In this document: positions 1 through 57,011 of the stretch, piece after piece
Layout of the letters: each line of letters opens with the position of its first letter
Position numbering within the stretch: the stretch's first letter is position 1
Origin: Escherichia phage vB_EcoM_fHy-Eco03
Strand: one strand, 5' to 3'
Sequence record: MW602648.1
DNA length: 57,011 bases
Made by a program: the position numbers and the translations under genes
The notes under the pieces: model-generated
The model's input: the letters and a program-made list of their open reading frames with translations, nothing else
What the model was told of the DNA's origin: nothing
The model's database searches: none

Positions 1-45
1 GGCGCAAAAAGAAAAAAAGCCGGATTGCTTTTGAAATTATAGACA

Positions 46-74
46 TTTACACAAGTCTTAAACTATGTTACAAT
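46..74 (+). promoter_or_regulatory. Sigma70-like promoter (TTTACA-N17-TGtTACAAT) in terminal repeat
   Basis: TTTACA at 46..51, 17-bp spacer, TACAAT at 69..74 preceded by TG at 66..67; about 40 bp upstream of the ATG at 114. Duplicate at 53358..53386. Confidence 0.5.
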
Positions 75-113
75 AGTTATTATTTACAATGTTAAGCACA
101 ATAGGAATTCATC

Positions 114-311
114 ATGAGCTATACTGACCAACAAATTGACACAGCAGCGGTTTTATTGGCACAAGAGGTAGATTTATTGCATTCTTTGATGAATGCTAGT
201 CATGATAGAGCTGAAACTATCAAGAATCAGATACGGGAAATTTGGTCTCAGCAGGTCAGCAACGGTGTATCTTTGGACTTTTTGGTGTGCCGCCTGAGAG
301 GTCAACTGTAA
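114..311 (+). CDS. Hypothetical protein (65 aa)
   Basis: ATG ORF with AGGAA 6 nt upstream; stop overlaps the next start (TAATG). Confidence 0.5.
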   Translation: MSYTDQQIDTAAVLLAQEVDLLHSLMNASHDRAETIKNQIREIWSQQVSNGVSLDFLVCRLRGQL

Positions 312-736
312 TGGTAAACATAAGAAGCAAGGGCCAGAACTTTGAGCGTAAAATGTCGAAAATGTTCAATGAATCGTTCGGGTTATCTACTGAGAGAAAT
401 CTCCAGCAATCTATAAACGGTGGAGATGATTTGATGGGAGTCCCGTTCTTCAGCGTTGAGCTCAAGAAGCACAACACCAAAGCTATCGGGACTTGGTGGA
501 AGCAATGTGCGGAATCAGCACGGCGTCAAAGCAAGATGCCAGTGCTAATCTATGAGATGCCACGGCAAAAGCCCACTGTCGTGATGAGAATTGAGGACGT
601 CAGTCAAGCTTTGGCTGAGGCACCACTGTTGCCAGCGGCTAGTAACAGGCTCTTTGTGGGCTTGGTGGAATTAACATGGGAACAATTTTGCCGGGTCTAC
701 AACTTTTACGTTGCGCCCGGCGTCGAGGTTGCTTAG
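311..736 (+). CDS. Putative PD-(D/E)xK-family nuclease (141 aa)
   Basis: ATG at 311 overlaps the upstream stop. Motif GGDDLMGVPFFSVELKK (D...ELK) resembles the PD-(D/E)xK nuclease signature. Track ORF 242..736 is the same frame with an upstream start. Confidence 0.4.
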   Translation: MVNIRSKGQNFERKMSKMFNESFGLSTERNLQQSINGGDDLMGVPFFSVELKKHNTKAIGTWWKQCAESARRQSKMPVLIYEMPRQKPTVVMRIEDVSQALAEAPLLPAASNRLFVGLVELTWEQFCRVYNFYVAPGVEVA

Positions 737-774
737 GTTGATGCTTGCATCAACACCAGTCAACTGTAGTTGAC
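737..774. terminator. Two adjacent hairpins between convergent genes
   Basis: GTTGATG-cttg-CATCAAC (737..754) and GTCAAC-tgta-GTTGAC (759..774), between the + gene ending at 736 and the - gene ending at 777; no clear U-run. Confidence 0.3.
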
Positions 775-776
775 AC

Positions 777-962
777 TTAGTCTTGTTTCAACTCATCGCA
801 GATAACGCGTTGATTTTGAGCTGGTACAAACCCGAGTTCGAGCAAAGTGTAAGGACTATCGGCGACGCATTGTTCAATGGTAGTCCATTCAGTTTTGGAT
901 TCAATAATTTTGTAACTACAATCATGAGTAGCCACACATGTTGCCAGGATTAAGCCAATCAC
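777..962 (-). CDS. Hypothetical protein (61 aa, GTG start)
   Basis: GTG start overlaps the upstream stop (GTGA); GAAGGAG Shine-Dalgarno upstream. Confidence 0.45.
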   Translation of the reverse strand: MIGLILATCVATHDCSYKIIESKTEWTTIEQCVADSPYTLLELGFVPAQNQRVICDELKQD

Positions 963-1138
963 AAGTAATCTCCTTCAACCAGAAACTCAAACAATTGGTT
1001 GTAAACGTTGCAACCCTTAGCGAAAGAGCTTTCAGCAGGTTTACCATCGCGGACGATCATCATATATTCACCGCCATGAATATCCACCCAGTATTGCATG
1101 CCACCCTTGACAGGGTTACGTTGTAAGAATTTAAACAT
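959..1138 (-). CDS. Hypothetical protein (59 aa), absent from the ORF track
   Basis: Hand-translated: MFKFLQRNPVKGG...VEGDYL. AAGGAG 7 nt upstream of the ATG; start overlaps the upstream stop (TAATG) and stop overlaps the downstream GTG. Confidence 0.5.
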   Translation of the reverse strand: MFKFLQRNPVKGGMQYWVDIHGGEYMMIVRDGKPAESSFAKGCNVYNQLFEFLVEGDYL

Positions 1139-1383
1139 TATTTGCTCCTTACTCCAAGTTTATTCAATAACCACACTGTCATGTCAACCCAGGTTAACGG
1201 TACAGTTTTCGGGGGTTGATAAGACCAGCACTTTCCAGCTCTTTCCGCAATTTCTTCGCGCCTTGCCGCTTGGCGTAATACTGCATCGTCAGAAGTGCCG
1301 GCAGAAAAAATATCGGCAATACCAGATAAATCGCCTCGATGAACACGTCCAGCAAGTTCATGCAGTTGCTCCTCAGAAAACAT
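1138..1383 (-). CDS. Hypothetical protein (81 aa)
   Basis: ATG start overlaps the stop of the upstream small ORF (ATGTTTTCTGA); part of the coupled leftward array. Confidence 0.5.
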   Translation of the reverse strand: MFSEEQLHELAGRVHRGDLSGIADIFSAGTSDDAVLRQAARREEIAERAGKCWSYQPPKTVPLTWVDMTVWLLNKLGVRSK

Positions 1384-1492
1384 AAGACAACACCATTAGA
1401 ATGATGATAAAGACAGCAACGGCTTTCGCCATGCCACGAGATTCATTATACACCGGATTTTCAGTGGTGTACTCAACAACATGCTTTTTCAT
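1373..1492 (-). CDS. Small hydrophobic protein (39 aa), absent from the ORF track
   Basis: Hand-translated: MKKHVVEYTTENPVYNESRGMAKAVAVFIIILMVLSYVF. GGAGG Shine-Dalgarno upstream; hydrophobic C-terminal half suggests a membrane segment. Confidence 0.45.
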   Translation of the reverse strand: MKKHVVEYTTENPVYNESRGMAKAVAVFIIILMVLSYVF

Positions 1493-1549
1493 ACAACCTC
1501 CAGTGTGAGAAATATCAATTGATGGCACCCGCAGATGCCATCTCAGATA

Positions 1550-2122
1550 TTACTCGCCTTCAGTCTCAGATTTTTCTTCAGTCTGAGGTGCTGCGGCTTC
1601 GTAGACCGTCTTACCATCAGTGATTTTACCGGATTTAACATCGTTACGGTAATAACTCATGTAAGACTGTACAACACGTTTTGATTTAACATCATCTTCA
1701 GCCATTTCACAGGCTTTCATGGCATCCGCAAGAGCGAGTTTTGAATCGTCTTTGTCTGCCAAGTTGTAATCTTTGAAGACCGCGTAACAAGTATCTTTGG
1801 TACTCGGTCCTGAAGATTTACGAGTACAACCAGTTGAACCGGAACGACTAGCTTTCTTCACTTCAACATGCTCAACCTCAAGACTTTCAAGTGCCTTATA
1901 CAAAGCAGGCACCAGAACATCCTTGCTGTCTTTGTGGGTGACAGATGCTTCATCATCAAGACTTTTAATCATCTTGACCAGTTGAGCATTTTGGAACTCT
2001 TTGAGAGCGCCTTTCTCAACAACGATGCAACTCATCATGCCTTCCATTGACAGACCATCTTTGATGCCTTCAACAGAAAAAGCGGAAGTTAAGTAAACAT
2101 ACTGAGTGATAGAATTTTCCAT
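1550..2122 (-). CDS. Hypothetical early protein (190 aa)
   Basis: Long ORF with AAGAGGA Shine-Dalgarno upstream; largest ORF in the terminal repeat. Confidence 0.6.
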   Translation of the reverse strand: MENSITQYVYLTSAFSVEGIKDGLSMEGMMSCIVVEKGALKEFQNAQLVKMIKSLDDEASVTHKDSKDVLVPALYKALESLEVEHVEVKKASRSGSTGCTRKSSGPSTKDTCYAVFKDYNLADKDDSKLALADAMKACEMAEDDVKSKRVVQSYMSYYRNDVKSGKITDGKTVYEAAAPQTEEKSETEGE

Positions 2123-2252
2123 GATTTTGTCCTCTTGTTTGTGGTTGACATCATTATAATGTCATGACTTCAGTTGTTTGTACATCTCAAATCACACATT
2201 TTTGTGCAATTTTTATCATGCGGTACGAATTATACCGCATTGTAAAAATTAC

Positions 2253-2453
2253 TCAAGAAATAATTACCTCAGTAACTACTACAGTGTTAGCAGTCACTAA
2301 TGTCAAAACTTTACCAGCTTTTGACCTCACAGCTTTCAACCGTAATTGTGACTGTGTGTAATTATTCCACTCTTCATCACTGAGCACGGTCCTGGTAACT
2401 TCAGGTCGTTCATCTTTGCCAAGCTTCACTACTGTAACTTTGATTAATGGCAT
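2253..2453 (-). CDS. Hypothetical protein (66 aa)
   Basis: ORF packed 4 nt after the upstream gene. Confidence 0.45.
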   Translation of the reverse strand: MPLIKVTVVKLGKDERPEVTRTVLSDEEWNNYTQSQLRLKAVRSKAGKVLTLVTANTVVVTEVIIS

Positions 2454-2456
2454 TGC

Positions 2457-2684
2457 TTAAACCTCAAATTTTGATTCGTCATATTCAGGGTCAGTCACAT
2501 CACGAGTGACACAATTTTGGAGTGCAGTCCAGTATTTTTGGACTTCAGCACCCTCCATGTATAGTGTCCAACCGTGATAGTAACCCTCGAAACTATTCCA
2601 GGTCCGTTCCCAAATCTTTCCGTCTTCGAGCTTATACTCAGTTGGTCTTGAGTCAAACTCACGGATAGTTGTGAATGTTACCAT
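2457..2684 (-). CDS. Hypothetical protein (75 aa)
   Basis: ORF in the coupled leftward array. Confidence 0.45.
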   Translation of the reverse strand: MVTFTTIREFDSRPTEYKLEDGKIWERTWNSFEGYYHGWTLYMEGAEVQKYWTALQNCVTRDVTDPEYDESKFEV

Positions 2685-2753
2685 GCGTTGTTACGCCTCT
2701 GTTGAATAATTTCAATCATGAACTATCACAACTTTGATAGTTCATTGTTGAAA

Positions 2754-2933
2754 CTATTGTAACTTTGTACTAATTTGAATTGTCAATCTAAACTCTTCAA
2801 GTAAGTTATCAATGTTGGATTTATCTTCCACAGCGGTAGAAATTTGATCACTTACAATTTGAGCATTTGACTCAAGAAGTTCAATCAAATGTGTCAATTC
2901 GTCTGCTGTCAATGTCAATTCTTTCATCATCAT
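2754..2933 (-). CDS. Hypothetical acidic protein (59 aa), absent from the ORF track
   Basis: Hand-translated: MMMKELTLTADELTHLIELLESNAQIV... Start overlaps the stop of the upstream ORF (ATGATGA). Confidence 0.4.
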   Translation of the reverse strand: MMMKELTLTADELTHLIELLESNAQIVSDQISTAVEDKSNIDNLLEEFRLTIQISTKLQ

Positions 2934-3100
2934 TCTCCTGAGTTAAATTGTGTGTCAATTTCAATAACTTTGGAACGTACATATTCCAGACAGTCATCAT
3001 AATCGTATGAAGTGTAACTCGGCATTGGAGAATCCAACCCTTCGTTAACATTCCATTCACCTTCATTAACATCAAACCAGATGATTAATTGAGTATGCAT
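2930..3100 (-). CDS. Hypothetical protein (56 aa), absent from the ORF track
   Basis: Hand-translated: MHTQLIIWFDVNEGEWNVNEGLDSPMPSYTSYDYDDCLEYVRSKVIEIDTQFNSGE. AGGAGT Shine-Dalgarno 8 nt upstream of the ATG. Confidence 0.45.
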   Translation of the reverse strand: MHTQLIIWFDVNEGEWNVNEGLDSPMPSYTSYDYDDCLEYVRSKVIEIDTQFNSGE

Positions 3101-3270
3101 TGTTATTACTCCTGTGTTAAGTTGTTTCAGGTGAGACTACTAAACTACTAATAGTCTCTGGATGAAATAACTTCACAGAGAAACAAAACATGTACCAAAT
3201 TGTTAAAGAGCAAAAGACACCATTGACCATCTACCAGATGTGTCTGTTGACTGGTTAAGTACTAACTACA

Positions 3271-3462
3271 CTAAGTAACTACATGCATCCTCCTGAACCG
3301 TTTCTGTGTCAAGTTGTTCAACACATTCAATAAATACATTATGTCAAAGTCCCTGTTGGTTGTACACAATAGAAGTGCAAGTTTGTGCAAGCTTTTAGAA
3401 ATGATAATCATCTGCGGTTGATAGTGATTCTCGTATGCAATTGATATAGTAACGCTCGTCAC
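3271..3462 (-). CDS. Hypothetical protein (GTG start, uncertain)
   Basis: Track ORF; its 5' end overlaps repeat element A, so the start is uncertain. Confidence 0.3.
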   Translation of the reverse strand: MTSVTISIAYENHYQPQMIIISKSLHKLALLLCTTNRDFDIMYLLNVLNNLTQKRFRRMHVVT

Positions 3463-3545
3463 TACTCAGTGTGAAACAGTCGACGGGGGTAAACGTCACA
3501 CACCGGTGCTATATTAGTTCCCCGGCGCAATTTTTATAAAAAATA
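3440..3545. repeat. Imperfect direct repeat element A (about 100 bp)
   Basis: TTGATATAGTAACGCTCGTCACTACTCAGTGTGAAACAGTCGACGGGGGTAAACGTCACACACCGGTGCTATATTAGTTCCCCGGCGCAATTTTTAT aligns with element B 173 bp downstream. Confidence 0.6.
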
Positions 3546-3612
3546 CAATTTCGTTTGTAATCGTAGACATACGGTATAGTTGCGGCCCGGTACCGTCACG
3601 GTGAGTTGTGAT

Positions 3613-3720
3613 TACGATTGTAATGATAACGCACGTTACTATTCACTCTGAAGGGGTGCCGGGGGGTAATTGTCACCTAGGGGTGTTAATTTAAGCCCCG
3701 GCAAATTTTTTATTTTTTTC
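3613..3720. repeat. Imperfect direct repeat element B, spanning the terminal-repeat boundary
   Basis: TTGTAATGATAACGCACGTTACTATTCACTCTGAAGGGGTGCCGGGGGGTAATTGTCACCTAGGGGTGTTAATTTAAGCCCCGGCAAATTTTTTAT; the repeat boundary (3699/3700) falls inside it at CCCC|GGC. Confidence 0.6.
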
Positions 3721-3966
3721 GTCCTTTTTCATCTCAATCACTATCATTATGTGACAATCATCAGGTCACTGTACAATACCGTATACAATAAGCTTCACAA
3801 TCGCAATTGACTCTCCTCCATACAACAAAAGGCCCTCCAAAATTTTTTTATATCTTCCGTACCGAATATAGACACCTCTAAAAAGTGGTGTACTTTTCCA
3901 CCACTGCACGCTATCATTATTAGTAACTTCAACGGACTTCGGTCCTTCATATTGTGGGTTATATAA

Positions 3967-4461
3967 ATGGAAATTCAACAGCTTCTGCCATATCCGTACT
4001 ATATAGCTTGTGTCTTCAACCGAGCACAATACGATGAGCTTCGTGCTCAATTCAACTTACCAAGCTTTGGCTACTGGGAAGACCCAGAAGAAGAATGGCC
4101 AGTGGCTTCTGCATCATTCCTTGCACGCAAGGAACACCCTCGTAAACTGGGTATCATGTGCTTTTATGACAAGGATTTTGACATCTGCTCTGTAGCCCAC
4201 GAAGGTGTGCACATAATGTCTGACCTGATGCATCGCCTCGGCATTACCTACGACCCGTTAAACGACGAGCCGTATGCTTATCAGCTCGAGCAAATCATGT
4301 ACTTCGCACGGCATAAATACAACGAGCTTCACAGCGCTATTGAGCACGTTGAAAAGGCTGTTATTGACACAGGTAATCACCCTTTAGTGCTTGAACAGCC
4401 TCAAAATCAGCTCAATATGCTAAATTCGGCCCCTTCAACTGGCTTTCTGGACGGCAAATAA
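3967..4461 (+). CDS. Hypothetical protein with HExxH motif (164 aa)
   Basis: ORF containing HEGVH; first rightward gene after the terminal repeat. A metallopeptidase-like function is speculative. Confidence 0.4.
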   Translation: MEIQQLLPYPYYIACVFNRAQYDELRAQFNLPSFGYWEDPEEEWPVASASFLARKEHPRKLGIMCFYDKDFDICSVAHEGVHIMSDLMHRLGITYDPLNDEPYAYQLEQIMYFARHKYNELHSAIEHVEKAVIDTGNHPLVLEQPQNQLNMLNSAPSTGFLDGK

Positions 4462-6880: not shown

Positions 6881-7016
6881 AACCGGATAAAAATAAGAGT
6901 GTCTAATCACTTCTTCTATATAAGGCGAGTACTTATAAGGATTTAGGCTGTAGACACTCTATCTCACCCTTTTAGACACTCCCATCTTTCACTTCTGCCT
7001 TATTCCTTATATAGCA

Positions 7017-7075: not shown

Positions 7076-7399
7076 ATGGCACGAAAACCACAAAAGACAC
7101 GCGATGCCACAGCAGAACTGCTGGCTAGCATGAATCGTATTCAGCTCGACCCGCTTGAAGTTATTGCACGTGCCATCAAACTGGCTGAAGCTGACAGTGA
7201 TTATAAGACTATGATTGACGGTTCACTCGGCATTATGCCGTATATGTACCCTAAATTAAAAGAGTCTGTTGTTAAAGCTGATATTGACCAGACCATTTCT
7301 GGCGGCGGTGTTAACCTTAACATTACAGTCGGCGGTAAGAAAATAGTCGGCGAAGAACCAGAAGAAGAACCTGAGGACGAGGATAATAATGAATCTTGA
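7076..7399 (+). CDS. Putative terminase small subunit
   Basis: 107-aa ORF immediately upstream of, and overlapping, the large terminase; acidic C-terminus. Called by position only. Confidence 0.4.
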   Translation: MARKPQKTRDATAELLASMNRIQLDPLEVIARAIKLAEADSDYKTMIDGSLGIMPYMYPKLKESVVKADIDQTISGGGVNLNITVGGKKIVGEEPEEEPEDEDNNES

Positions 7400-8840
7400 T
7401 TTTGACCTGCACGACAGGCAAGGTGAAGCCCTGCTGTCCCAGGCCACCGAGATTCTTTATGGTGGTGCAGCAGGCGGGGGCAAATCCCACTTGATGCGCA
7501 TTATGGCTATCATTCTTTGCTGTATGATACCTCGTTTACAGATTTACTTGTTTCGCCGTAACTTTAATGACCTGACAGCTAACCATATGGTTGGTCCGTC
7601 AGGTTTTCCTGCATTGCTTGACCATATGGTTAAAGCTGGTAAATGCAAGATTAACTACTCCAGTAACGTGATTAAGTTCTGGAATGGTTCGCACATTAAC
7701 TTGTGTCACCTACAATACGAGAAAGATATATACACCTACCAGGGTGCTGAGATTCACGTTCTGTTAATGGATGAGCTTACTCACTTTACAGAAACGATGT
7801 ATCGATTCCTCCGTAACCGTGTTCGTTTAGGTGCGCTAAAGATTCCAAAGGACTTCTTCCGGCCGCTACCACTCATCTTTTGTGGGTCAAACCCCGGTGG
7901 TATCGGGCACAACTGGGTTAAGCGTACTTTCGTAACAGCTGCACCTCCTATGCACATGGTTAAACAACCTAAGCGTGAAGGTGGTATGATTCGCCAGTAC
8001 ATTCCGGCAAAAATGTCTGATAACCCAACCCTGATGGAAAACGACCCGGACTACGGTGACCGACTCGAAGGTCTGGGTGACCCGGCACTGGTTGCTGCAA
8101 TGAAAGAAGGCGACTGGGATATTGTTGCTGGTGGTGCGCTGGATGACGTGTGGAGTAACAAGTCAGTTATACCACGAATGAAAGTTCCTAAAGGCTGGAC
8201 AATTGAACGTTCAATGGACTGGGGCTCAACGCATCCATTCTCTATTGGTTGGTGGGCCATTTCAAATGGTGCTCCTCTGGTAGATGAGAAGACTGGCGAA
8301 GAGTATCACCTTCCAAACGGCTCATTAATCCGTATAGCTGAATGGTACGGGTGCAAGGAAAACGAAGCTAACACCGGTTTGAAATTGTCTGCAGGTGAAG
8401 TAGCTGACGGTATTCTTGAGATTGAAGAAAACTTGCTACTTGGCGGTTGGATTCATGACAAGCCTTGGCCTGGCCCGGCAGACGGACAGATTTATGCCGT
8501 TAAAGAGCGTGACGTAGAGACCATCGCTAAAAAGATGGAAGACAAAGGTGTGCACTGGGTGCGTGCCGACAAGTCACAGGGCTCAAGAATAAATGGCCTG
8601 GAGCTATTCCGTCAGCGACTGAAAAATGTTAAGATGGATAACTATGAAGAACCAGGCATTTACTTTATGGAAAACTGTACAGCTGCCATAAACACATTGC
8701 CAGTTATTCCGCGTGATAAAAACAACAGCGAAGACGTTGACACACATTCTGAAGACCACGTATATGACGATTGTAGGTACATGGTTCTGCGAGGTGTGAA
8801 TCGTTACGCTACATCATTGAACGTTAAGATGGGACGGTAA
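7389..8840 (+). CDS. Terminase large subunit
   Basis: Walker A YGGAAGGGKSH and Walker B VLLMDELTHF; 483 aa; followed by the portal gene. Confidence 0.85.
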   Translation: MNLDFDLHDRQGEALLSQATEILYGGAAGGGKSHLMRIMAIILCCMIPRLQIYLFRRNFNDLTANHMVGPSGFPALLDHMVKAGKCKINYSSNVIKFWNGSHINLCHLQYEKDIYTYQGAEIHVLLMDELTHFTETMYRFLRNRVRLGALKIPKDFFRPLPLIFCGSNPGGIGHNWVKRTFVTAAPPMHMVKQPKREGGMIRQYIPAKMSDNPTLMENDPDYGDRLEGLGDPALVAAMKEGDWDIVAGGALDDVWSNKSVIPRMKVPKGWTIERSMDWGSTHPFSIGWWAISNGAPLVDEKTGEEYHLPNGSLIRIAEWYGCKENEANTGLKLSAGEVADGILEIEENLLLGGWIHDKPWPGPADGQIYAVKERDVETIAKKMEDKGVHWVRADKSQGSRINGLELFRQRLKNVKMDNYEEPGIYFMENCTAAINTLPVIPRDKNNSEDVDTHSEDHVYDDCRYMVLRGVNRYATSLNVKMGR

Positions 8841-40296: not shown

Positions 40297-41941
40297 TCCC
40301 CCAGTCGTAGTTCATGATTTGTGGGTGAGGTCGCTTAATCCAAACCTTAATGGCTTTAGGTATTGCAAGCTCACCTTTACGGCGTATAAATTCGTCGCAA
40401 GTCTCTGGCGGTTGAGTACCTGCTGCATTCTTCCACCAGATGTCTGCTAATGTCTTAGAGTTACCATACGCTTCAACGTTAACCCAGGTCGTAAAAATCT
40501 CCATGTTAGAATAGTATATAACCTTGATGCTGTCAGGTCGCCCTGCTTTCTGGAATAAAGCATAGTTTACAAGAGTTACTTCTTTGTCTTCAACTCTTAA
40601 CTTGCCGTCAGTCATTACATCTTCATTAGATGCCTCGCCAGCGATAGCCGGACCATTAGTTTTGAATAAAAACTCATGCCCGCAAAGTCTGTTCTCTTCA
40701 GGCTTACTACCTTTTGCTGGATGCTTACAGAACTTAGCTGCAAATCCACTTACCTGATGGCACACAGGGCATTCTTTACCACCCGGGTTACTTCGCTTAA
40801 TACCACCTTTTTTCTTTTTACCGACTCGTGGCGGTATAGCAGGGTCATCAATTGGGCCTAAGTTAATTGTGTTGCTGGTAAAGTCCATAACTAAACAGTT
40901 TTCTTTGCCAGGTGCAACACGTAAACCACGGCCCAGAATCTGTACCCACAAAGCGACTGAATCTGACGGACGCAATATAACAAGCAGGTCAATCTCTGGA
41001 TAGTCAAAACCTGTTGTCAATACGTTTACGTTGACACAAACACGATACACACCTGCTTTATAATCAGCAAGTGCTTGCTCACGTTCTTTCTTGCCGAGGC
41101 CGCCGTGAATAACTACAGCTGACCAGCCTCTTATCTCAAACTCGGCTGCTATATTATACGCATGCTCAACACTTACGGCAAATGCTAACACATGCTTTCT
41201 GTCGTGACCATAAGCCATTACTTCGCGTATTGCTGCCGATGTTATATCTGCCTGGTCTGCAGCTTGTTCAAGCTCTGACTGTATGTAATCACCCATCCTT
41301 GTACCAACATTACTTGTGTCAATCTTAGTTGCCACTTTCTTGTTGACAAGACGAGACAAGAAGCCTTCGTTAACCAGTCGGCTAAATGAATCCGGAGTTG
41401 TCAGGTCATAACAGATGTCGGTAAAGATACCACAATCCAGTAAGTGACCGCCTGCAAGACGGTATGGCGTTGCAGTTAACCCGCTGACCTTCAGCTTAGG
41501 ATTAACTTCTTTAAAGTGCGCAATAACACGACGATAAGTTGTTTCAGATTTCTCAGGAACAAGATGGGCTTCGTCGATAAAGATAAGATTGAACTTACCG
41601 GCTTCTTCCAGGTTGTTTACAATAGACTGAATAGAAGCTACAACGATTCTGCCGCTAAAGTCTTTACGACCTACGCCAGACGAATAGATTGATAATGGTG
41701 CATGTGGCCAGTGTCGAACAATTGCTTTAGCATCTTGCTCAACCAGCTCTTTGACGTGTGTCAGAATAAGAATACGCTGACGAGGATATTGGGTAAGAAT
41801 ATCCTTCATCAACATACCAAGCACAGGTGACTTACCTGAACCGGTAGGCATAACTATTAATGGGTTGCCGCTATAAGAGTTGAAGTAACTCCACCAGGCA
41901 GCTACTGCTTCTTGTTGATACCAGCGAGCTTCAAAAGCCAT
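40268..41941 (-). CDS. SF2 DEAD/DEAH-box DNA helicase
   Basis: Motif I MPTGSGKS, motif II FIDEAHLV, motif VI ILGRGLR; C-terminal Cys cluster CPVCHQ...CKHP suggests a zinc ribbon. Confidence 0.8.
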   Translation of the reverse strand: MAFEARWYQQEAVAAWWSYFNSYSGNPLIVMPTGSGKSPVLGMLMKDILTQYPRQRILILTHVKELVEQDAKAIVRHWPHAPLSIYSSGVGRKDFSGRIVVASIQSIVNNLEEAGKFNLIFIDEAHLVPEKSETTYRRVIAHFKEVNPKLKVSGLTATPYRLAGGHLLDCGIFTDICYDLTTPDSFSRLVNEGFLSRLVNKKVATKIDTSNVGTRMGDYIQSELEQAADQADITSAAIREVMAYGHDRKHVLAFAVSVEHAYNIAAEFEIRGWSAVVIHGGLGKKEREQALADYKAGVYRVCVNVNVLTTGFDYPEIDLLVILRPSDSVALWVQILGRGLRVAPGKENCLVMDFTSNTINLGPIDDPAIPPRVGKKKKGGIKRSNPGGKECPVCHQVSGFAAKFCKHPAKGSKPEENRLCGHEFLFKTNGPAIAGEASNEDVMTDGKLRVEDKEVTLVNYALFQKAGRPDSIKVIYYSNMEIFTTWVNVEAYGNSKTLADIWWKNAAGTQPPETCDEFIRRKGELAIPKAIKVWIKRPHPQIMNYDWGNGFGQPRTV

Positions 41942-42004
41942 TGTTAACCTCTCTTCGTTTCTATGTGTCTATTATATCACTTCCATGTGATAAGGTACAC
42001 TCCT

Positions 42005-42877
42005 TTATAAAGAGAAGGCTACTGCTGGTCCATCATCCTTTCGTGGGTATACATCAGCCATTGTGTAATCCCCACAAGCTGCCATCTGAGTTGCGATGGT
42101 TTCGAGATTGTGTTCATGCTTGGTGCAGTACCACACCTTGCCGCTTACAGGTTTACTGTAGGCACAGGTACGGCAATTCCTGTCTGGTGCCGCTCCCTTG
42201 TTGCAGATGTGTGTAAACTCACACATACGGCATTCCCACCACAGCGGTGATTCACTGATGCGCGGCATATCCAAACCAGACTCTGCTTCAATAACACTCT
42301 TAGCCCGGTCAAGTATAATGTCTGCAGACAGATTATCACGGTGTACAATCTCTATGTACAGCTCATCCGTGTTCTTATTGATTGCCATGTACACACACTT
42401 ATTCAGATTGAGTAAGTGCATATATACTTGCATCTGGTCATAGTGCACGGGCTTACACTCTTTTACCTTATGCTTAGCAAACTCCTTAAACGATTTGTCT
42501 CCATGAGTTTTAAACTCCAACAGGAACCATTCATCGTCTATCTTCGCCACACCATCGCATGACCCTGAGAAGATACCGTTAAACGCTGACACTCGCCATT
42601 GTTTATTGGTCTTAGGGTTTACAGGATAAAGCTCCTGCGCAATTGGTTTAAGCCATTCGAGGAACCGTACTTCTTCCCGTGAACCTCGGTCAAACAATCG
42701 AAGCTGCTTGGCATTAAACTTTTCTTTGTACGACCAGTGCAGCACATGCCACAAATAACGATAGCACTTATTACCAATTTGTGACGCACCCAGGTGACCA
42801 CGTCGCTCCTCCTTCTCATGGGCTTCAACAATCTTAACATCAATTCGCTTCTTCAGCGTTTCGGCCGTAATACTCAT
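42005..42877 (-). CDS. Cas4/RecB-like PD-(D/E)xK exonuclease with Cys cluster
   Basis: One N-terminal Cys (KCYRYLWH) plus C-terminal CRMCEFTHIC...CRTC, the Cas4-type arrangement. Start placed at the internal ATG (42877) with AGGGG Shine-Dalgarno; the track ORF extends to 42925. Confidence 0.45.
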   Translation of the reverse strand: MSITAETLKKRIDVKIVEAHEKEERRGHLGASQIGNKCYRYLWHVLHWSYKEKFNAKQLRLFDRGSREEVRFLEWLKPIAQELYPVNPKTNKQWRVSAFNGIFSGSCDGVAKIDDEWFLLEFKTHGDKSFKEFAKHKVKECKPVHYDQMQVYMHLLNLNKCVYMAINKNTDELYIEIVHRDNLSADIILDRAKSVIEAESGLDMPRISESPLWWECRMCEFTHICNKGAAPDRNCRTCAYSKPVSGKVWYCTKHEHNLETIATQMAACGDYTMADVYPRKDDGPAVAFSL

Positions 42878-43388
42878 TATAGCCCCTGTTAGCAAACTGA
42901 CCATGCATTTGAATACGCATTTCATCCAGCCAGTTTATTAGTTTAGTCCTGTTGTCTTCTGTCGCCAACATTGTCTTGGTCTTGCGTTTGCCGTCCTTAG
43001 TAATGCTGGCAACATAATATGGTTTACCTTTTAGTGTTACTCTTGATAACCCTTTTACACCAGATGTGTTATTAAGATATATATTTGTGTTGCAACGGTT
43101 ATCGCTACGTGTTGCTGCTCTGACATATTTATTGTCCTCTCGCGTTAGACTCGGATGGTCAACTTCCGGTGGTTCATACCCAAACTGCATGAAGTAGATT
43201 ACACGATGTACAAGGCACTGTCTCCCTTTAATGCGCACTGTTTTGTAACCGTCTTTACGTAAAGAACCGGCTTCCGTGCCGGCTTTAACTTTATTATTGG
43301 CCCTGTTAATCTTGTTCATTAACCGGCCATCTTCAACATAGAACAGCTCTGACAACTCAGCTTGTGTAGCCGGAATCGGCACAAACAT
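42840..43388 (-). CDS. HNH homing endonuclease
   Basis: GYKTVRIKGRQCLVHRVIY...EVDH...NRCNT pattern typical of phage HNH homing endonucleases; overlaps the neighbouring genes. Confidence 0.55.
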   Translation of the reverse strand: MFVPIPATQAELSELFYVEDGRLMNKINRANNKVKAGTEAGSLRKDGYKTVRIKGRQCLVHRVIYFMQFGYEPPEVDHPSLTREDNKYVRAATRSDNRCNTNIYLNNTSGVKGLSRVTLKGKPYYVASITKDGKRKTKTMLATEDNRTKLINWLDEMRIQMHGQFANRGYNEYYGRNAEEAN

Positions 43389-43806
43389 ATTCTACTCCTG
43401 AATCAGTTAAAAAAGCCTTTGCCTCGAGCATAGATGCATGCCATTTTGAGGCAGAATAAGCGTCTAGAGAGCTAGTCACTAGCCTTATAATAGGTATATT
43501 CGCCTTAAGCATTTTAGAGCACTCTAGGCATGGCGGATATGTGACATAAACGGTCACACCTTCTGTCAGTTGTGCCTTTAAATTAGCCATACAATTAACT
43601 TCTGCATGGATTGTATACACATTCTTCAGTTCCGCTGGGATAACCGACAAGCCATCCAGCTGACGAGGGAATCCATTGTAGCCTGTTGACAGTATGCGAT
43701 TGTCTTGTGATACTATAACACATCCAACTTTACGCTTATCATCTTTGGACCAGCTACCTATAAGGTGAGCCAGCTCCATAAATCGGCTATCCCAAAGGTT
43801 CTGCAT
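43357..43806 (-). CDS. dCMP deaminase
   Basis: Zinc-binding motifs HAE (IHAEVNCMA) and PCxxC (PPCLECSKM); AGGAG Shine-Dalgarno before the ATG at 43806. Confidence 0.8.
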   Translation of the reverse strand: MQNLWDSRFMELAHLIGSWSKDDKRKVGCVIVSQDNRILSTGYNGFPRQLDGLSVIPAELKNVYTIHAEVNCMANLKAQLTEGVTVYVTYPPCLECSKMLKANIPIIRLVTSSLDAYSASKWHASMLEAKAFLTDSGVEYVCADSGYTS

Positions 43807-43824
43807 GTTAAAGCTCCTGCGCAC

Positions 43825-43847
43825 AAAAAGGGTAGCCGAAGCTACCC
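43825..43847 (-). terminator. Intrinsic terminator hairpin (minus strand)
   Basis: GGGTAGC-cgaa-GCTACCC followed on the minus strand by a U-run (plus-strand AAAAA at 43825..43829). Confidence 0.6.
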
Positions 43848-43865
43848 TTTTATTAATCTACGGAA

Positions 43866-44393
43866 TTACTGGTTCCAAGGAGCGTCAGCGTCGTCTTCTT
43901 CACCAGGAGCAGCACCTGCAGAAGCAGCACCAGCTACAGCGTTAGCTGCAGTTTGAGTGTTGCTCGCGACGTTGCCAGTCACAGGAGCAGTTGCGGCAGC
44001 AGCAGATTTGTATTCACGCACATCGTTTGATGGGTCATATTCACCGGTCTTGTCGACTTTGATACCGACCTTACCAGCTACGATGCGGTTTTCCAGCATA
44101 TCAGTGGACTTCAGTTCCACGATACCTACAGCACGGCACAGCGTAGACAGTTTGCGATGGCCGATTTCAACAGCCTGGGCGTTCGGGTTCGAATAGGTAA
44201 TCATATCGAACACAGTGCGGTTATTAAACTCGCCACCCTGTACTTTCAACTGCAGTGACAGATAAGAACCGGTACCTGCTTTAGTAGGCTTCAGCTCTAC
44301 CTGTTCAATCATCAAATCGTACCAGCCTTTAGGAATCGGGTCAAAAGACTGTTGCGGTTCGACGTTTGCACTGTTGAATTGTAACTCTGCCAT
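43866..44393 (-). CDS. Putative ssDNA-binding protein
   Basis: 175 aa with a disordered Ala/Gly-rich region and acidic C-terminus (GEEDDADAPWNQ); adjacent to the Sak4-like ATPase gene. Confidence 0.35.
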   Translation of the reverse strand: MAELQFNSANVEPQQSFDPIPKGWYDLMIEQVELKPTKAGTGSYLSLQLKVQGGEFNNRTVFDMITYSNPNAQAVEIGHRKLSTLCRAVGIVELKSTDMLENRIVAGKVGIKVDKTGEYDPSNDVREYKSAAAATAPVTGNVASNTQTAANAVAGAASAGAAPGEEDDADAPWNQ

Positions 44394-44494
44394 TTTATGG
44401 TTTCCTTAGTTTAGTTTATTTGTTTAACGCATCGGAGCTACGTTCGGCTCGTGAGAAAGATTATACGCCACTTTTATTCATGGCGTAAACACTT

Positions 44495-45388
44495 TTATTC
44501 TTCGGTTTTATCTTCCGATACGGCTTCTTCCTGTCGTTGCTTGGCCAGCCACGCCGCATGCTTCTCTTTGTGGGCATCCGAACCGATTTTGGTTACAGTC
44601 ATAAGAGGGTCAGCAGACAGCTCATGTGCATCCATACCATTTAACAGCAGATACGTATCAGATTCCGTGTGATAGTACCACAGTTTCTGAGGATGTAAAC
44701 CCTGTAGCTTGGAGTAAATCCAACCCAGGTCTGCTGGCTCATGCTTATCCAGTGTACGACCTGGTGCATTACGGCACTTAGCATCCCATTGGAAGTCTGG
44801 CTGAGTCTGCACGTAGCGTGCTGAGTTACCGTCGTTGTCAGGTGCACTCATACGCATAGCAAGTACAGCATCCACAAGGTATGGCAGTTGCTTAGGAAGT
44901 TGTTGACCTGGCATAAGAGGAGAGTACAGCATTGCGCCGCTGACCTCATCTTTATTCTTCTCCAGCTTACAGATGTAAGCGATACTGAAAGGCAGGTCAC
45001 GGAACTGGCGCATGATATACATCATTTTATCTGCTACAGCACCGTAAGCCTGTCGCTTGTCGTTTACCTGAGTCTTCTCATACTCAAGGCATACTTCTGC
45101 AACGTCAGATAAAGAATCAAAAACAAGGTGCTTGTACTTCTTGGCACCTGGATTCTCTGTCAGCCATTTGTACAGGTCTAGAATATCCTGGAAGGTTTTA
45201 ATCTTCGTGGTATCAATGTCTGCATCTGCAATTGACATCAACCCGCCTTCCGCATCTACAATCAAAGTGCTTTCACGCGGAAGAGTACGGGCCATGCTTG
45301 TTTTACCTACGCCAGACTGACCATAGATAACGACCTTAGGCAGCTTGTTCTCAGCTGCCTCTTTAGTTGAACGGATTTCTACTGCCAT
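44495..45388 (-). CDS. Sak4-like RecA-fold ATPase (recombination)
   Basis: N-terminal Walker A VVIYGQSGVGKTS; Walker B-like HLVFDSL; size about 297 aa. Confidence 0.5.
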   Translation of the reverse strand: MAVEIRSTKEAAENKLPKVVIYGQSGVGKTSMARTLPRESTLIVDAEGGLMSIADADIDTTKIKTFQDILDLYKWLTENPGAKKYKHLVFDSLSDVAEVCLEYEKTQVNDKRQAYGAVADKMMYIMRQFRDLPFSIAYICKLEKNKDEVSGAMLYSPLMPGQQLPKQLPYLVDAVLAMRMSAPDNDGNSARYVQTQPDFQWDAKCRNAPGRTLDKHEPADLGWIYSKLQGLHPQKLWYYHTESDTYLLLNGMDAHELSADPLMTVTKIGSDAHKEKHAAWLAKQRQEEAVSEDKTEE

Positions 45389-45619
45389 TTAATACCCCTC
45401 TGTTAACATCTCTTCGTCACAGTACATGTTATAAAGCGCGTGTTCCGCTTCGTCCAGTGTGGCAAACTCTTCGCCGCAGATAACAAAACGAGATACATCA
45501 TCTTCGTCAGGATACTGCTCTTCAATCTGCCAGGTGCCACGTAAGCCGTAACACCAGAAGTCGCTGTCGTCGCCGGCTTTAAGTTTACGGGTTTGTTTGA
45601 ATTGATTGAACGTATACAT
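45389..45619 (-). CDS. Hypothetical protein (76 aa)
   Basis: ORF coupled to the Sak4-like gene. Confidence 0.4.
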   Translation of the reverse strand: MYTFNQFKQTRKLKAGDDSDFWCYGLRGTWQIEEQYPDEDDVSRFVICGEEFATLDEAEHALYNMYCDEEMLTEGY

Positions 45620-45676
45620 GATGCTCTCCTTGAGTTGATAAAAGTATTATACCCCTTTTAAGAGGTAATGTACACT

Positions 45677-46111
45677 TTATTTATACACTTCAATGGTACA
45701 CAAGTCGTGGTAGTGTCCCATTGCATGTAGTAACCGTCGCAGGTTACAAAGTGCTTGCTCAGGAGTGAATGCTTCAACCCACAAAGGGACCATGAGGCCG
45801 CACACAGCACCTTGGTCAGGTAGCTTGACACGGTAAAGATAGGTGTTAGTGTAAACACGGGTTACACTCATGACGTTCAGCATAGCATGAAGCTTAATAT
45901 CCTGTTGCTTCCAGAACTCATGGAACTCTTTGCTATTTACAATAGCACGGAACAAATGCTCTTTACTGGCAATAGCAGTTGCACGAATAAGAAAACGACA
46001 ACCAAAGAATTCGTCGACGTTAATGGTTTCAACAGCAAAGACAGGTGCATCAGTAGATGAACATTTATGCAGGTAGATAACAGACTTGGTGGCTTCCATA
46101 ATATTCTCCAC
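45677..46111 (-). CDS. Hypothetical protein (144 aa)
   Basis: ORF. Confidence 0.4.
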   Translation of the reverse strand: MENIMEATKSVIYLHKCSSTDAPVFAVETINVDEFFGCRFLIRATAIASKEHLFRAIVNSKEFHEFWKQQDIKLHAMLNVMSVTRVYTNTYLYRVKLPDQGAVCGLMVPLWVEAFTPEQALCNLRRLLHAMGHYHDLCTIEVYK

Positions 46112-46147
46112 AGTGTTAGAAAGCGGGACCGAAGTCCCGCACAGTTA

Positions 46148-47212
46148 TTACAGCAGTGATTTAAGCTGGTCGATAGATTTCAACAGCATTGCGATTTCAG
46201 GGTCACGCTCTGCCATCATGCGAAGCATGTCACCACGCATCATTTCCTGCACACGTTTGTCGAGTGCAGCTTCAGCAGCTTTCAGGTTCTCTTCGGCCTG
46301 CTGACGCGCACGATACATACCCAGGTCAACTACAGACACCAGCCATTTCAGGTCATAGTGAGTTGGGTTGTGGTCAAGCACATTAACTACTTCAACAACC
46401 TTAGTACCACACAGCTCTGGGTACATTTTATTTTCAACACGCACAACCGCTTCATCGCCGATGTTAACCTGACCACGATACTTGTAAGTATACAGCTTGC
46501 CGCCATCTTCAAACTGTACCTGCACATAACGGATTGGCTCTTCCTGCACGATAGCTGCAGCAGTCATAACACGACGCTCCAGTGCATTGAAGTCCAGAAC
46601 CAGCGCTTTAGGTTGTTCTTTCTTACCGTAAGCAGCTTGCATCTTCGCTGCAAGATACTGCTCGGAGTAAGTTACTTTGATGTTGCGCTTAAACGCCTGG
46701 CAACCATAAACCATCCAGCTACCAGTTTCATCAACGCAGTAGATTTGGTTAGAAGGTGCAGAAGCGCTTGCGCCATCTTTGGTTTTGGAAACGCGATACA
46801 GTTTGCCATATTCCAGGTTTACCTTAGGCTGTACAGCCTGCGCCCATTCAAGGTTTTCCTTAACGAACGGCTGGAAACGTTCACGGCTAAAGTTATGCTT
46901 CAGACCATGGTCGTCGATAACCCAGATGTTGTCGTGCTGACCGCCGAAAGAACCGAGGTTAGCATATACTTTACCCTGAGTCAGCAGTGAAGTGCTACCT
47001 TCATCAACACAGATAACGAAGTTGATTGCGTCATGAGCTTTACCGTTTTTGTCGAATACTTGTGCCATGGTCTTATTTCCTTGTTTAGTGACAGATACAA
47101 TACTTGTTTTGTGGGTACCAGGTGCTAAGCGCTCACCATCTTTTGCGTCAACCTTAATTTTAACTCGCAGGCCGCGACCGAGCATTTGAATCAATTCCAT
47201 TAAGAACCTCAT
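46148..47212 (-). CDS. Hypothetical protein (354 aa)
   Basis: ORF with coiled-coil-like C-terminus. Confidence 0.5.
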   Translation of the reverse strand: MRFLMELIQMLGRGLRVKIKVDAKDGERLAPGTHKTSIVSVTKQGNKTMAQVFDKNGKAHDAINFVICVDEGSTSLLTQGKVYANLGSFGGQHDNIWVIDDHGLKHNFSRERFQPFVKENLEWAQAVQPKVNLEYGKLYRVSKTKDGASASAPSNQIYCVDETGSWMVYGCQAFKRNIKVTYSEQYLAAKMQAAYGKKEQPKALVLDFNALERRVMTAAAIVQEEPIRYVQVQFEDGGKLYTYKYRGQVNIGDEAVVRVENKMYPELCGTKVVEVVNVLDHNPTHYDLKWLVSVVDLGMYRARQQAEENLKAAEAALDKRVQEMMRGDMLRMMAERDPEIAMLLKSIDQLKSLL

Positions 47213-47272
47213 TGCTTAACCGTTAAATACATTATGTCGCTAGACAGTGATGATGTACACTATTATTTTAAT

Positions 47273-47572
47273 TTATTTTAGTGCCCCTTCGCATATAGCA
47301 TGACACAACGCATGCCACGGTTTATCAAAGTCTTCTACTAAGAAGCATTCACCATTAGCAACAATGTCTACATCATTAACCTGTAGAGTCATACCAGCTT
47401 TGAACAAGATGTCAAATGCCTGTTCCTTGTTCTTGTACGGGTTATATATCTGATGGAAGCCACTCCCACAAAGAAGGCAAGGTTTTCCCTCCAGCTGATA
47501 CGCTTTAGAGTGTTTAACCACAACACCGGCTATCTTAGCCAGCTTCTCCAGCTTCTCGAAGTTCTCACTCAT
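47273..47572 (-). CDS. Hypothetical protein (99 aa)
   Basis: ORF. Confidence 0.4.
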   Translation of the reverse strand: MSENFEKLEKLAKIAGVVVKHSKAYQLEGKPCLLCGSGFHQIYNPYKNKEQAFDILFKAGMTLQVNDVDIVANGECFLVEDFDKPWHALCHAICEGALK

Positions 47573-47874
47573 GGCAGTTCTACCTGTACAGTTACTTGAC
47601 GCGGGTCAAACACATCTACCGATTTATTTTCGTTAACACGAATGAAGGCTACACCGTATATACGTGCTTTCTCTTCAGCCAGCATTAACGGAGCCAGCTT
47701 GTGTTCCAGCTCTACAGGAATGTCTGTAAGAGATGCCGTCTCAGGCATATCAAGCATCTTCATTACAGTACGTAATAAGCCAAGGTGATGGCGATACTTA
47801 TCTTCCTGACTGTACTTCTTGTTGACCGCTTTCATTCTTTTCAGACTCATTGTTAGACTCCTCAGTAATTGCAT
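47569..47874 (-). CDS. Hypothetical protein (101 aa)
   Basis: ORF coupled to the downstream gene (ATGA overlap). Confidence 0.4.
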   Translation of the reverse strand: MQLLRSLTMSLKRMKAVNKKYSQEDKYRHHLGLLRTVMKMLDMPETASLTDIPVELEHKLAPLMLAEEKARIYGVAFIRVNENKSVDVFDPRQVTVQVELP

Positions 47875-48166
47875 CCATCAAATCCCTGAATGTACCGTAC
47901 AACCATTGGTATGGTTGCGGCCATTTCAGGGCGTTGAGCATTACGATGGTTGTTAGTTTACGTTTGTACTTCTTCTCCGCAATAGCTTTCTTAAGAAGAT
48001 TACGGGCTATTGTATTCTTCTTAGGTTTGTTAAAGATTGCTGGCAGCATGATGTCTGTCAACATCGTCTTTATTTCTTCCAGGTCTTCAAGCAGCTCTTC
48101 AGGAGACGTCCTTTCAAAGAACGCCTCCCATCGAGCGGCGTTTTTACTCGTCGCCATTATCTTCAA
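47798..48166 (-). CDS. Hypothetical protein (start uncertain)
   Basis: ORF overlapping the downstream gene by about 77 nt. Confidence 0.3.
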   Translation of the reverse strand: MKIMATSKNAARWEAFFERTSPEELLEDLEEIKTMLTDIMLPAIFNKPKKNTIARNLLKKAIAEKKYKRKLTTIVMLNALKWPQPYQWLYGTFRDLMDAITEESNNESEKNESGQQEVQSGR

Positions 48167-48593
48167 TAGGTGTGAACGTTACAACAGGAATCCCCGGGCT
48201 TACTTTAACGATTGGTTCTACAATCGCCAGTTGCTCAGGCGTTAAGTTACGATAACCAGTAAGGCTAAGCTCGTATTTGGTTTTGAATACTTTTGCCCTT
48301 ACAACAGGAGGCAGCTTCTTCATTACTTCAGGCACCAGCTTCTGGTCAAGTGAACGGTTAACCTTCTGGTCAACCTTCAGCTTACCAGGTACACCATTGA
48401 CTGCATACTCAATAGTCTGTGTACCTTCTTTACCAGTCTGGATTGCCATGTCAGCTTCCAGACGCGCTTTGATTGTACGACGCAATGTTTCTGCGTCGGC
48501 TTTTGCTTTAGCCATCCAGGTGTTAACATTGGTGAGCTGAGTTAACAGCTCTTCAGTTGAACACTCTTCAATCGGCTTTTTGTTTATCAGCAT
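48144..48593 (-). CDS. Hypothetical protein (149 aa)
   Basis: ORF. Confidence 0.4.
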   Translation of the reverse strand: MLINKKPIEECSTEELLTQLTNVNTWMAKAKADAETLRRTIKARLEADMAIQTGKEGTQTIEYAVNGVPGKLKVDQKVNRSLDQKLVPEVMKKLPPVVRAKVFKTKYELSLTGYRNLTPEQLAIVEPIVKVSPGIPVVTFTPIEDNGDE

Positions 48594-48876
48594 TCTTCAG
48601 GTCCTCATCTGGAAGGAAGTTCCCTACAACATTGTACTGGAACAGGTATTGGTTGAACAAATCGCGAAATGCCTGGATTGCATCCGCTCTACTGATAGTC
48701 ATTATACCATCATTAGTGTAGACGTGTAAAACCTTTTTATTTCCGTCTTCAAATTCGATACGCACAACATCCTGCATATCCACAAGATGGATGGTACCTG
48801 CCCATTGCTGTTCACCCGGTTCAGCTTGATACGCAAATTTCATATTATCTCCAGCGTGCATGGTCGTCACAAACAT
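48568..48876 (-). CDS. Hypothetical protein (102 aa)
   Basis: ORF. Confidence 0.4.
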   Translation of the reverse strand: MFVTTMHAGDNMKFAYQAEPGEQQWAGTIHLVDMQDVVRIEFEDGNKKVLHVYTNDGIMTISRADAIQAFRDLFNQYLFQYNVVGNFLPDEDLKNADKQKAD

Positions 48877-49084
48877 AAAGCCAATCTGTTACCATAATTG
48901 GGTAACCACCTGTGGGGTTGCCTTTGCCATCGTATGTTGTGTGCCAAGTCATTCGTTGACGTGACTCATTAGTACGTTGGCAATTGTGCTTCTTCATATC
49001 CAGGTAATCCCAGCGTAAATAAACGATTAACCCGATTACGAAGAGCACAACAACAACAAATGTTACTGTGCCCTGATGTTTCAT
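48845..49084 (-). CDS. Hypothetical membrane protein (79 aa)
   Basis: N-terminal hydrophobic segment VTFVVVVLFVIGLIVYL. Confidence 0.4.
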   Translation of the reverse strand: MKHQGTVTFVVVVLFVIGLIVYLRWDYLDMKKHNCQRTNESRQRMTWHTTYDGKGNPTGGYPIMVTDWLYVCDDHARWR

Positions 49085-49174
49085 ATTATCTCGCTACAAA
49101 GTAAGCTGCCATACCCCATACCAGGGCACAATATACAATACAAGTTACTGCCATCCAACCGCGAGTAGAAAGTT

Positions 49175-49986: not shown

Positions 49987-50052
49987 CTATTATGCATATA
50001 AAGGAAGGAGAAGTAAATAGCTCTTTTAAGTATTAAATACATTAAGTAGCTA

Positions 50053-50082
50053 TGTACATCAATGACGCCCTGACTATATAAT
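50053..50082 (+). promoter_or_regulatory. Candidate promoter in the divergent control region
   Basis: TATAAT at 50077..50082 with a weak -35 (TGTACA, 18-bp spacer); AAGGAGG and ATG at 50114 downstream. Region 49987..50113 separates divergent operons. Confidence 0.3.
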
Positions 50083-50113
50083 AGATGCTCACTTACAAAG
50101 GAGGCATCATGCG

Positions 50114-53386: not shown

Positions 53387-53425
53387 AGTTATTATTTACA
53401 ATGTTAAGCACAATAGGAATTCATC

Positions 53426-56582: not shown

Positions 56583-56774
56583 CTAAGTAACTACATGCAT
56601 CCTCCTGAACCGTTTCTGTGTCAAGTTGTTCAACACATTCAATAAATACATTATGTCAAAGTCCCTGTTGGTTGTACACAATAGAAGTGCAAGTTTGTGC
56701 AAGCTTTTAGAAATGATAATCATCTGCGGTTGATAGTGATTCTCGTATGCAATTGATATAGTAACGCTCGTCAC
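56583..56774 (-). CDS. Hypothetical protein (duplicate of 3271..3462)
   Basis: Identical copy in the right terminal repeat. Confidence 0.3.
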   Translation of the reverse strand: MTSVTISIAYENHYQPQMIIISKSLHKLALLLCTTNRDFDIMYLLNVLNNLTQKRFRRMHVVT

Positions 56775-57011
56775 TACTCAGTGTGAAACAGTCGACGGGG
56801 GTAAACGTCACACACCGGTGCTATATTAGTTCCCCGGCGCAATTTTTATAAAAAATACAATTTCGTTTGTAATCGTAGACATACGGTATAGTTGCGGCCC
56901 GGTACCGTCACGGTGAGTTGTGATTACGATTGTAATGATAACGCACGTTACTATTCACTCTGAAGGGGTGCCGGGGGGTAATTGTCACCTAGGGGTGTTA
57001 ATTTAAGCCCC

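Follow-up and report, generated by a model that had tools for sequence, protein, structure and literature searches.

The chromosome of Escherichia phage vB_EcoM_fHy-Eco03 carries two imperfect copies of a noncoding sequence at the inner edge of its long terminal repeat (DTR), and this locus raises the question of whether the copies serve transcription, replication or the making of the chromosome ends. The window analysed here is the whole chromosome, which is complete and linear and has a length of 57,011 bp (MW602648.1). On self-comparison of the window the DTR is exact and 3,699 bp long, with positions 1-3699 matching 53313-57011 at 0 mismatches. The paper describing fHy-Eco03 reported 3,699-bp DTRs from PhageTerm, with restriction digests in agreement and 11 genes inside the repeat, and its supplement gives the PhageTerm class as 'DTR (long), T5'; the paper is silent on promoters and on repeats in the intergenic gap (PMC8145870). 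It is internally inconsistent on the repeat length, with '3229 bp terminal repeats' in a table note, '3.6 kb' in a figure legend and 3,699 bp in the text and the PhageTerm output (PMC8145870). The phage DNA was left uncut by many restriction enzymes (PMC8145870), and this resistance suggests an unknown base modification. The DTR holds small leftward genes that are presumed to be early. The relatives of the phage fall into the myovirus genera Rosemountvirus and Loughboroughvirus, and most of their records are collapsed, at 52-53 kb.

Two tandem elements at the boundary of the terminal repeat

The original prediction described two imperfect direct repeats of about 100 bp, A (3440-3545) and B (3613-3720), and these align far beyond chance. 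Between A (3430-3550) and B (3603-3725) the mean column identity is 78% over 125 columns, and the local alignment score is 44, compared with 14.4 ± 2.2 (max 28) for 2,000 shuffles and 14.3 ± 2.0 (max 26) for 3,000 random genomic segments. The noncoding gap that contains them, first put at 500 bp, measures 866 bp (3101-3966) and lies between the ORFs at 2930..3100 (- strand) and 3967..4461 (+ strand). The two elements stand in tandem orientation and are not divergent.

Each element can be divided at a CC^GGC core, where the caret marks the position of a DNA end. The upstream half of A, which we call the R-module (3440..3523, + strand), is the part that A has in common with B by alignment and is conserved in 20/20 genomes; it contains an extended -10-like motif, TGATATAGT (3442-3450), a G-run GGGGG (3485-3489) followed by TAA, and CAC..GGTG (3497-3508), and is closed by CCCC (3520-3523). 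The downstream half of A, the L-module (3524..3568, + strand), is common to A and the left terminus of the chromosome and consists of GGCGCAA, an AT-rich stretch and TAGAC (3564-3568). In B, the R-module (3613..3699, + strand) includes CACC..GGTG, has a G-run GGGGGG (3661-3666) followed by TAA and is likewise closed by CCCC (3696-3699). As had been predicted, B straddles the DTR boundary, which, given the exact DTR, falls between 3699 and 3700 in ...AAGCCCC^GGCAAATTTTTT. The B tail beyond the DTR (3700..3722, + strand) is GGCAAA and then T6-A-T7. Only 3 unique sites in the genome match A5-N-A6. Two of them adjoin the two DTR cuts; the third, at 40808-40819 on the - strand, lies in the unique part of the genome. 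The right end of the chromosome (56752..57011, + strand) repeats both elements, with A complete (cut position between 56835 and 56836) and B truncated at its own cut, at 57011. A partial third copy of core and tail is found at 3831-3873 (GGCCCTCC AAAATTTTTTTATATCTTCCGT), with 80% identity to the B tail and a TAGAC at 3869-3873 after it; a minor - strand PhageTerm peak (3859, T 0.07, p 1.7e-7) lies inside this copy.

Conservation of the elements in related genomes was assessed with 12 GenBank relatives and 8 Logan/ENA contigs, 20 genomes altogether, and A and B proved to be present and syntenic in 20/20, about 176 bp apart. Over these genomes the G-run of A stands 34 nt before the CC^GGCG core, or 35 nt in a single genome, that of B stands 32-34 nt before its core, and the A core lies 175-178 bp from the B core. 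The column-wise conservation profile has maxima at the G-run (3480-3499), over the core with its AT-rich tail (3520-3559) and in the T-tracts of B (3700-3719). A is better conserved than B across genomes; the B T-tracts are kept in about 18-19/20 and are lacking in the metagenomic genome L140. Within a genome A and B are 59-72% identical, compared with 57-61% for the window A against B copies elsewhere, and the last 6-8 nt ahead of the cut change together in the two elements (TCCCC/GCCCC in the window, GGCGCC/GGCGCC in SOI901, GGAGCC/GGAGCC in emiel). By these measures the two elements co-evolve inside each genome. The B tail of L140 (GGCAATTTTTATAAATTTTG, 6990-7010) resembles its A tail, which suggests A-to-B gene conversion in that genome. 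In two other genomes, L142 and L137, the left terminus and A are almost identical to those of the window, yet B is of the Loughboroughvirus type, and the B region is therefore mosaic. A protein-based scan of IMG/VR for further relatives found nothing, and a DNA pattern scan of the same database was unspecific, nhmmer recovering only four true relatives among 120 loci.

DNA ends at A, B and the left terminus

The top five PhageTerm read-start positions per strand are listed in Figure S6 of the fHy-Eco03 supplement (PMC8145870), and a PhageTerm coordinate minus 47,594 gives the window coordinate. We rejected the mirror mapping of these coordinates, which would put the A peaks at the junction of 176 and 177, where the motif is absent. 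On the + strand there are peaks at the left terminus, L (47595, window 1; T 0.66, p 1.5e-114), and at A (51118, window 3524; T 0.40, p 2.1e-26), and on the - strand at B (51293, window 3699; T 0.68, p 1e-195) and again at A (51117, window 3523; T 0.59, p 3.9e-149). Positions 3523 and 3524 are the bases on either side of CCCC^GGCG in A, the exact homologue of the B cut, so that DNA ends map right after the conserved CC in both elements, to the base. A is cut bluntly (3523..3524, both strands), because its + and - peaks are adjacent. The partner positions of the other two ends, 47594 at L and 51294 at B, are absent from the top five of either strand, which places their T below 0.06. Among the peaks, then, L contributes its rightward face only, B its leftward face only and A both faces. 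Mis-assignment of reads among the three cuts is excluded, as the 20 nt beside each are too different. The authors used the top peak of each strand alone and left the second pair undiscussed (PMC8145870); A is a second cut site, 176 bp upstream of B, that had gone unremarked.

Two further data sets place termini at homologous bases. The record of Sz has a DTR of 4,263 bp that begins ^GGCGAAAAAAAT and ends ...GGAGCC^, the homologous bases. For the Klebsiella phage AEV23 a DTR of 3,915 bp was published from PhageTerm (PMC12918118), and the L-to-B distance that homology predicts for this phage is 3,915 bp, exactly the published length. The B cut (3699..3700), at once the inner DTR boundary and the right end of the chromosome (...GCCCC), is accordingly placed by the exact DTR, by PhageTerm, by Sz and by AEV23, and termini coincide in three independent data sets (fHy-Eco03, Sz and AEV23). 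The AEV23 record (OR810919.1) is chimeric exactly at the left terminus, ^GGCGG; its positions 1-1583 are about 1.6 kb of E. coli-like DNA with an IS5 transposase and a methyltransferase, and the phage part is closed by an 8-nt overlap of its two ends. The record looks like an assembly chimera formed at the physical end, and its stated length of 55,637 bp is suspect.

The T values do not separate classes of molecules in fHy-Eco03, as a 1:1 mixture of L-to-B with A-to-A chromosomes and one of L-to-A with A-to-B chromosomes would both give roughly equal peaks. The ends at A could also be produced once packaging is over or while the DNA is being prepared. A further possibility is that B and L alone are functional, with A a decaying duplicate whose peaks mark a fragile or nuclease-sensitive site in extracted DNA. 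The restriction digests of the authors fit the 57,011-bp L-to-B map (PMC8145870), and the + strand T at A is below the values at L and B, both of which agree with such an explanation. We nevertheless regard it as quite improbable: A is the better conserved copy, on each strand the A peak sits precisely at the homologous base (p 2e-26 and 4e-149, rounded), and the other CCGGC sites of the genome are not among the PhageTerm peaks listed. Published work on two related phages also argues against it. In S144, a 12,604-bp SspI fragment (40,301-52,905) was replaced by two bands of 5-7 kb, and digests were the same after fast or slow cooling; the authors saw no cohesive ends and inferred short direct repeats in the gap (PMC7432712). 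In S144, ends at A/B predict SspI fragments of 7,117 and 5,663 bp, which agree with the mapping, and a left end at L predicts one of about 11,050 bp, which does not. The Rosemountvirus vB_SenM-1 was classed as 'COS' by PhageTerm, with the position of the site not given (PMC7503781), and adjacent + and - peaks such as those at A would yield this class.

Transcription, RNA structure and replication

The suggestion that the elements could be divergent early promoters, operators or packaging signals stands for packaging signals, since the conserved core coincides with the mapped DNA ends, and for a promoter in A as a sequence match; the elements are not divergent, and nothing operator-like exceeded chance. 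The motif TGATATAGT at the 5' edge of A is a rightward extended -10 match that is kept in 18/20 genomes, and its position is annotated as a predicted promoter in the S144 record. It is probably a rightward promoter for the host RNA polymerase that overlaps the module; the S144 authors state that the phage lacks its own RNA polymerase, unlike T7 and T3. The two metagenomic genomes L140 and L141 have TGATAACAG in place of TGATATAGT, with the G-run and core intact. The promoter-like hexamers of B vary in strand and position between lineages and are inconsistent at the homologous position. A conserved leftward promoter-like site, TGTACA-17-CATAAT (3366..3338), lies outside both elements. A promoter role of A is thus plausible and can coexist with a cleavage role, but it is not what the repeat conserves.

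Operator-like palindromes in the 5' parts of the elements were considered and discarded, as their best arms are no longer than those of shuffles. The palindrome TTACNNNNGTAA has 5 unique sites in the genome (2264, 3612, 23581, 33807 and 44967), where about 1 is expected and 0/100 shuffles reach the count; its enrichment is genome-wide and not specific to A and B. At 3612 the palindrome sits on the 5' border of B, and in relatives it is found again within the 5' portions of A or B.

The original prediction further gave each element a hairpin of a G5 and a C4 segment. This is true of B in the window, where the hairpin reaches -27.2 kcal/mol (z -2.7, and z -4.0 in per-lineage folding) with the stem GCCGGGG..CCCCGGC, and it fails for A (z about -0.2). 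When each lineage is folded separately, the hairpin beats shuffles only in the window and in its closest relative, KM. In the window B hairpin is followed by a T-run, and a consensus terminator scan flagged neither A nor B. An intrinsic terminator at B was not found in the relatives, in which the hairpin has z > -1.7 or stands apart from the T-run. Searched at the gathering score, Rfam gave no match, relaxing the limit to E<=10 brought none in either element, and ARAGORN found no tRNAs. For 12 B sequences RNAalifold returned no consensus structure (-1.3 kcal/mol). For 11 A sequences it returned a weak one (-9.05 kcal/mol) in which two pairs are broken in the window sequence, with essentially no covariation (a positive covariation term and one compensatory change in one sequence). 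We reject a structured RNA on the results of Rfam, ARAGORN, RNAalifold and per-lineage folding taken together. With no conserved RNA structure, it is therefore the primary sequence at fixed spacing that is conserved, as expected of a DNA site recognised by a protein.

Two other structures were seen in the same gap. An imperfect long inverted repeat at 3105-3187 (CTGTGTTAAGTTGTTTCAGGTGAGACTA ... TAGTCTCTGGATGAAATAACTTCACAG) lies directly upstream of the first leftward gene (start 3100); it produces spurious mir-582 matches on both strands, and the conservation of the region is 0.79-0.86. In 3880-3905, the best-conserved 20-nt bin of the gap (0.93), there is a hairpin AGTGGTG-TACTTTTC-CACCACT, about 60 nt upstream of a Ku/Gam-like gene (3967-4461), which could be a 5'-UTR structure or a regulatory site.

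These results bear on the possibility that A and B are primarily transcription signals, each with a rightward early promoter and, after it, a terminator made of a hairpin and a T-run, giving two RNAs of about 75 nt or attenuation into the rightward operon, with the DNA ends coincidental. The conserved extended -10 with its S144 annotation and, in window B, the hairpin before T6-A-T7 are in keeping with such signals. We consider them an unlikely primary function, as TGATATAGT can be replaced with the G-run and core unchanged, the B hexamers shift, the RNA searches and consensus folds give neither family nor structure, and the hairpin is significant in two lineages only; ends at the same base in both copies would also go unexplained. 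A replication origin is another conceivable function, in which the promoter, a G-rich segment able to form an R-loop and an AT-rich unwinding segment would act together and the ends would be replication intermediates. The cumulative GC skew is lowest at about 3-5 kb, and each G-run has AT-rich tracts after it. Yet the skew tracks the direction of transcription and is thus not independent evidence, no iterons or DnaA-box-like repeats were seen, and virion DNA ends are not expected at origins, so that we give an origin very little credence. The reading that we favour, and judge likely, is that the module present in A and again, in tandem, in B acts in cis to set where the packaging nuclease, presumably terminase, cuts the replicated DNA.

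Proposed half-signals and the formation of chromosome ends

The left terminus, ^GGCGCAAAAAGAAAAAAAGCCGG (1..75, and again 53313-53387; + strand), begins at the + strand PhageTerm peak and contains TAGAC (40-44) and a sigma-70-like promoter, TTTACA (46-51), 17 nt and TACAAT (69-74), all on the + strand. Its pattern, ...ACGCC^GGCG, an A-rich stretch, GYCGG, about 20 nt, TAGAC and TTTACA-17-TACAAT, is conserved in 10 lineages. This promoter (46-74), close to consensus and 45 nt in from the left end, faces g01 and a gene near the left end for a PDDEXK nuclease (242-736; PF24608, elsewhere annotated RusA-like), a layout kept in all relatives. The 66 nt downstream of the A cut are 53-62% identical to the first 66 nt of the genome in 9 lineages, at or above the maximum of 300 shuffles in 8/9 of them, a likeness that is modest and AT-rich and that was found before the PhageTerm table was read. 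The downstream part of B matches L at chance level, 42-50% in 8/9 lineages and 57% in KM. The upstream 66 nt are common to A and B (62-71%) and not to L. Little weight was left to an inverted-symmetry motif relating the L and B boundaries, as its scores are only marginally above background and driven by A/T-tracts; this symmetry is of low complexity and is not universal, KM and SOI901 being without the first A-run at L.

By comparison of the ends, the R-module (about 85 bp, with the G-run 32-35 nt upstream of the cut and CAC..GGTG) is present at every right-type end (A and B), and the L-module (GGCG, an AT-rich stretch and TAGAC) at every left-type end (L and A), with a spacing from GGCG to TAGAC of 39-40 nt at both across lineages. 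As the R-module is common to A and B and the L-module to A and L, A is therefore a composite of both half-signals.

From this match of modules to ends, we infer that each half-signal may direct a cut in one strand: the top-strand 5' end would come from the L-module and the bottom-strand 5' end from the R-module. If the modules abut, as in A, the result would be a blunt double-strand break, cos-like and without an overhang. With a distance between them (3.7 kb for L and B, 176 bp for A and B), the nicks would be staggered and would be resolved by strand-displacement synthesis, duplicating the intervening DNA as a terminal repeat. Staggered nicks with strand-displacement fill-in are the classical scheme for phages of the T7 type. 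Virion DNA would then be a mixture of L-to-B molecules of 57,011 bp (DTR 3,699), A-to-B molecules of 53,488 bp (DTR 176), L-to-A molecules of 56,835 bp and A-to-A molecules of 53,312 bp with no redundancy. We put forward tentatively, as a possibility somewhat short of an even chance, a full three-site, two-module system in which the L-type module nicks the top strand and the R-type the bottom strand, and the distance between the chosen pair sets the redundancy: none for A with A, 176 bp for A with B, and 3.5-4.8 kb for L with A or L with B. The large terminase subunit is encoded at 7389-8840 (PF03237 and phrog_979). The candidate for the small subunit is the ORF at 7076-7399 (gp18), whose AlphaFold model has a pLDDT of 63 and for which there was no Pfam, PDB-sequence or Foldseek match.

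Several known systems resemble parts of this layout. Concatemer junctions of T7 and T3 are processed at pac signals into an exact short DTR by staggered cuts and fill-in. The phages studied here agree with T7/T3 in having exact, sequence-defined ends with a DTR, one recovered face per boundary cut, a promoter towards the right end and G/C-rich inverted segments near the ends. They differ in that the repeat can be 3.5-4.8 kb with early genes inside, in having three cut sites, of which one is blunt and two-faced, where T7/T3 have two, and in lacking sequence similarity to T7. In lambda cos, the cosN nick site is flanked by the recognition elements cosB and cosQ. Site A is similarly single, both of its products are chromosome ends, distinct recognition sequences lie on each side of the cut and a repeated element is nearby; unlike lambda, it has a duplicated recognition element of about 85 bp in place of 16-bp R boxes, and cohesive ends of the lambda type were not found at A, the adjacent peaks there being those of a blunt cut. 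In SPP1 the pac region consists of pacL, pacC and pacR, and there too recognition boxes flank the cleavage region with A/T-tract DNA alongside, but in SPP1 a single cut starts headful packaging and the ends are permuted, whereas the ends here are exact.

Phages with long DTRs include the T5 class of PhageTerm, and SPO1 and the Kayvirus group have early genes in the repeat. fHy-Eco03 shares its T5 class assignment with the former and, as in phage K, has small leftward, presumably early genes in its repeat. Kayvirus long terminal repeats may be bracketed by inverted repeats. We know of no defined boundary signal with a nearby cleaved paralogue in SPO1, Kayvirus or T5-class phages, and the literature that we searched gave no usable confirmation of boundary repeats in other long-DTR phages. 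Nor did it contain an earlier description of the three-site, two-module layout. The elements are most likely duplicated chromosome-end cleavage signals; cis signals of the cos and pac type and DTR formation of the T7 type were already known, and it is the proposed layout that would be new.

To our knowledge, little is understood, T7-like phages apart, of how long exact terminal repeats are made and what sets their boundaries. In the present case three independent phages have boundaries placed to single-base precision, and the signal is conserved and duplicated, with a composite copy that is itself cut, which makes the predictions testable by mutation. If the three-site system is true, one phage packages a defined mixture of chromosome types, long terminal repeats arose simply by the separation of two half-signals, and these phages would offer a sequence-defined and genetically tractable model for the making of long exact terminal repeats. 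The same three sites can give rise to a long DTR, a short DTR or a 'cos' end, which may explain the differing end types reported for related phages. The three-site picture would reconcile these accounts for Rosemountvirus and Loughboroughvirus, several members of which are candidates for therapy or biocontrol, and would make the physical ends and the DTR length predictable from nothing more than the sequence in the many circularly collapsed records of 52-53 kb.
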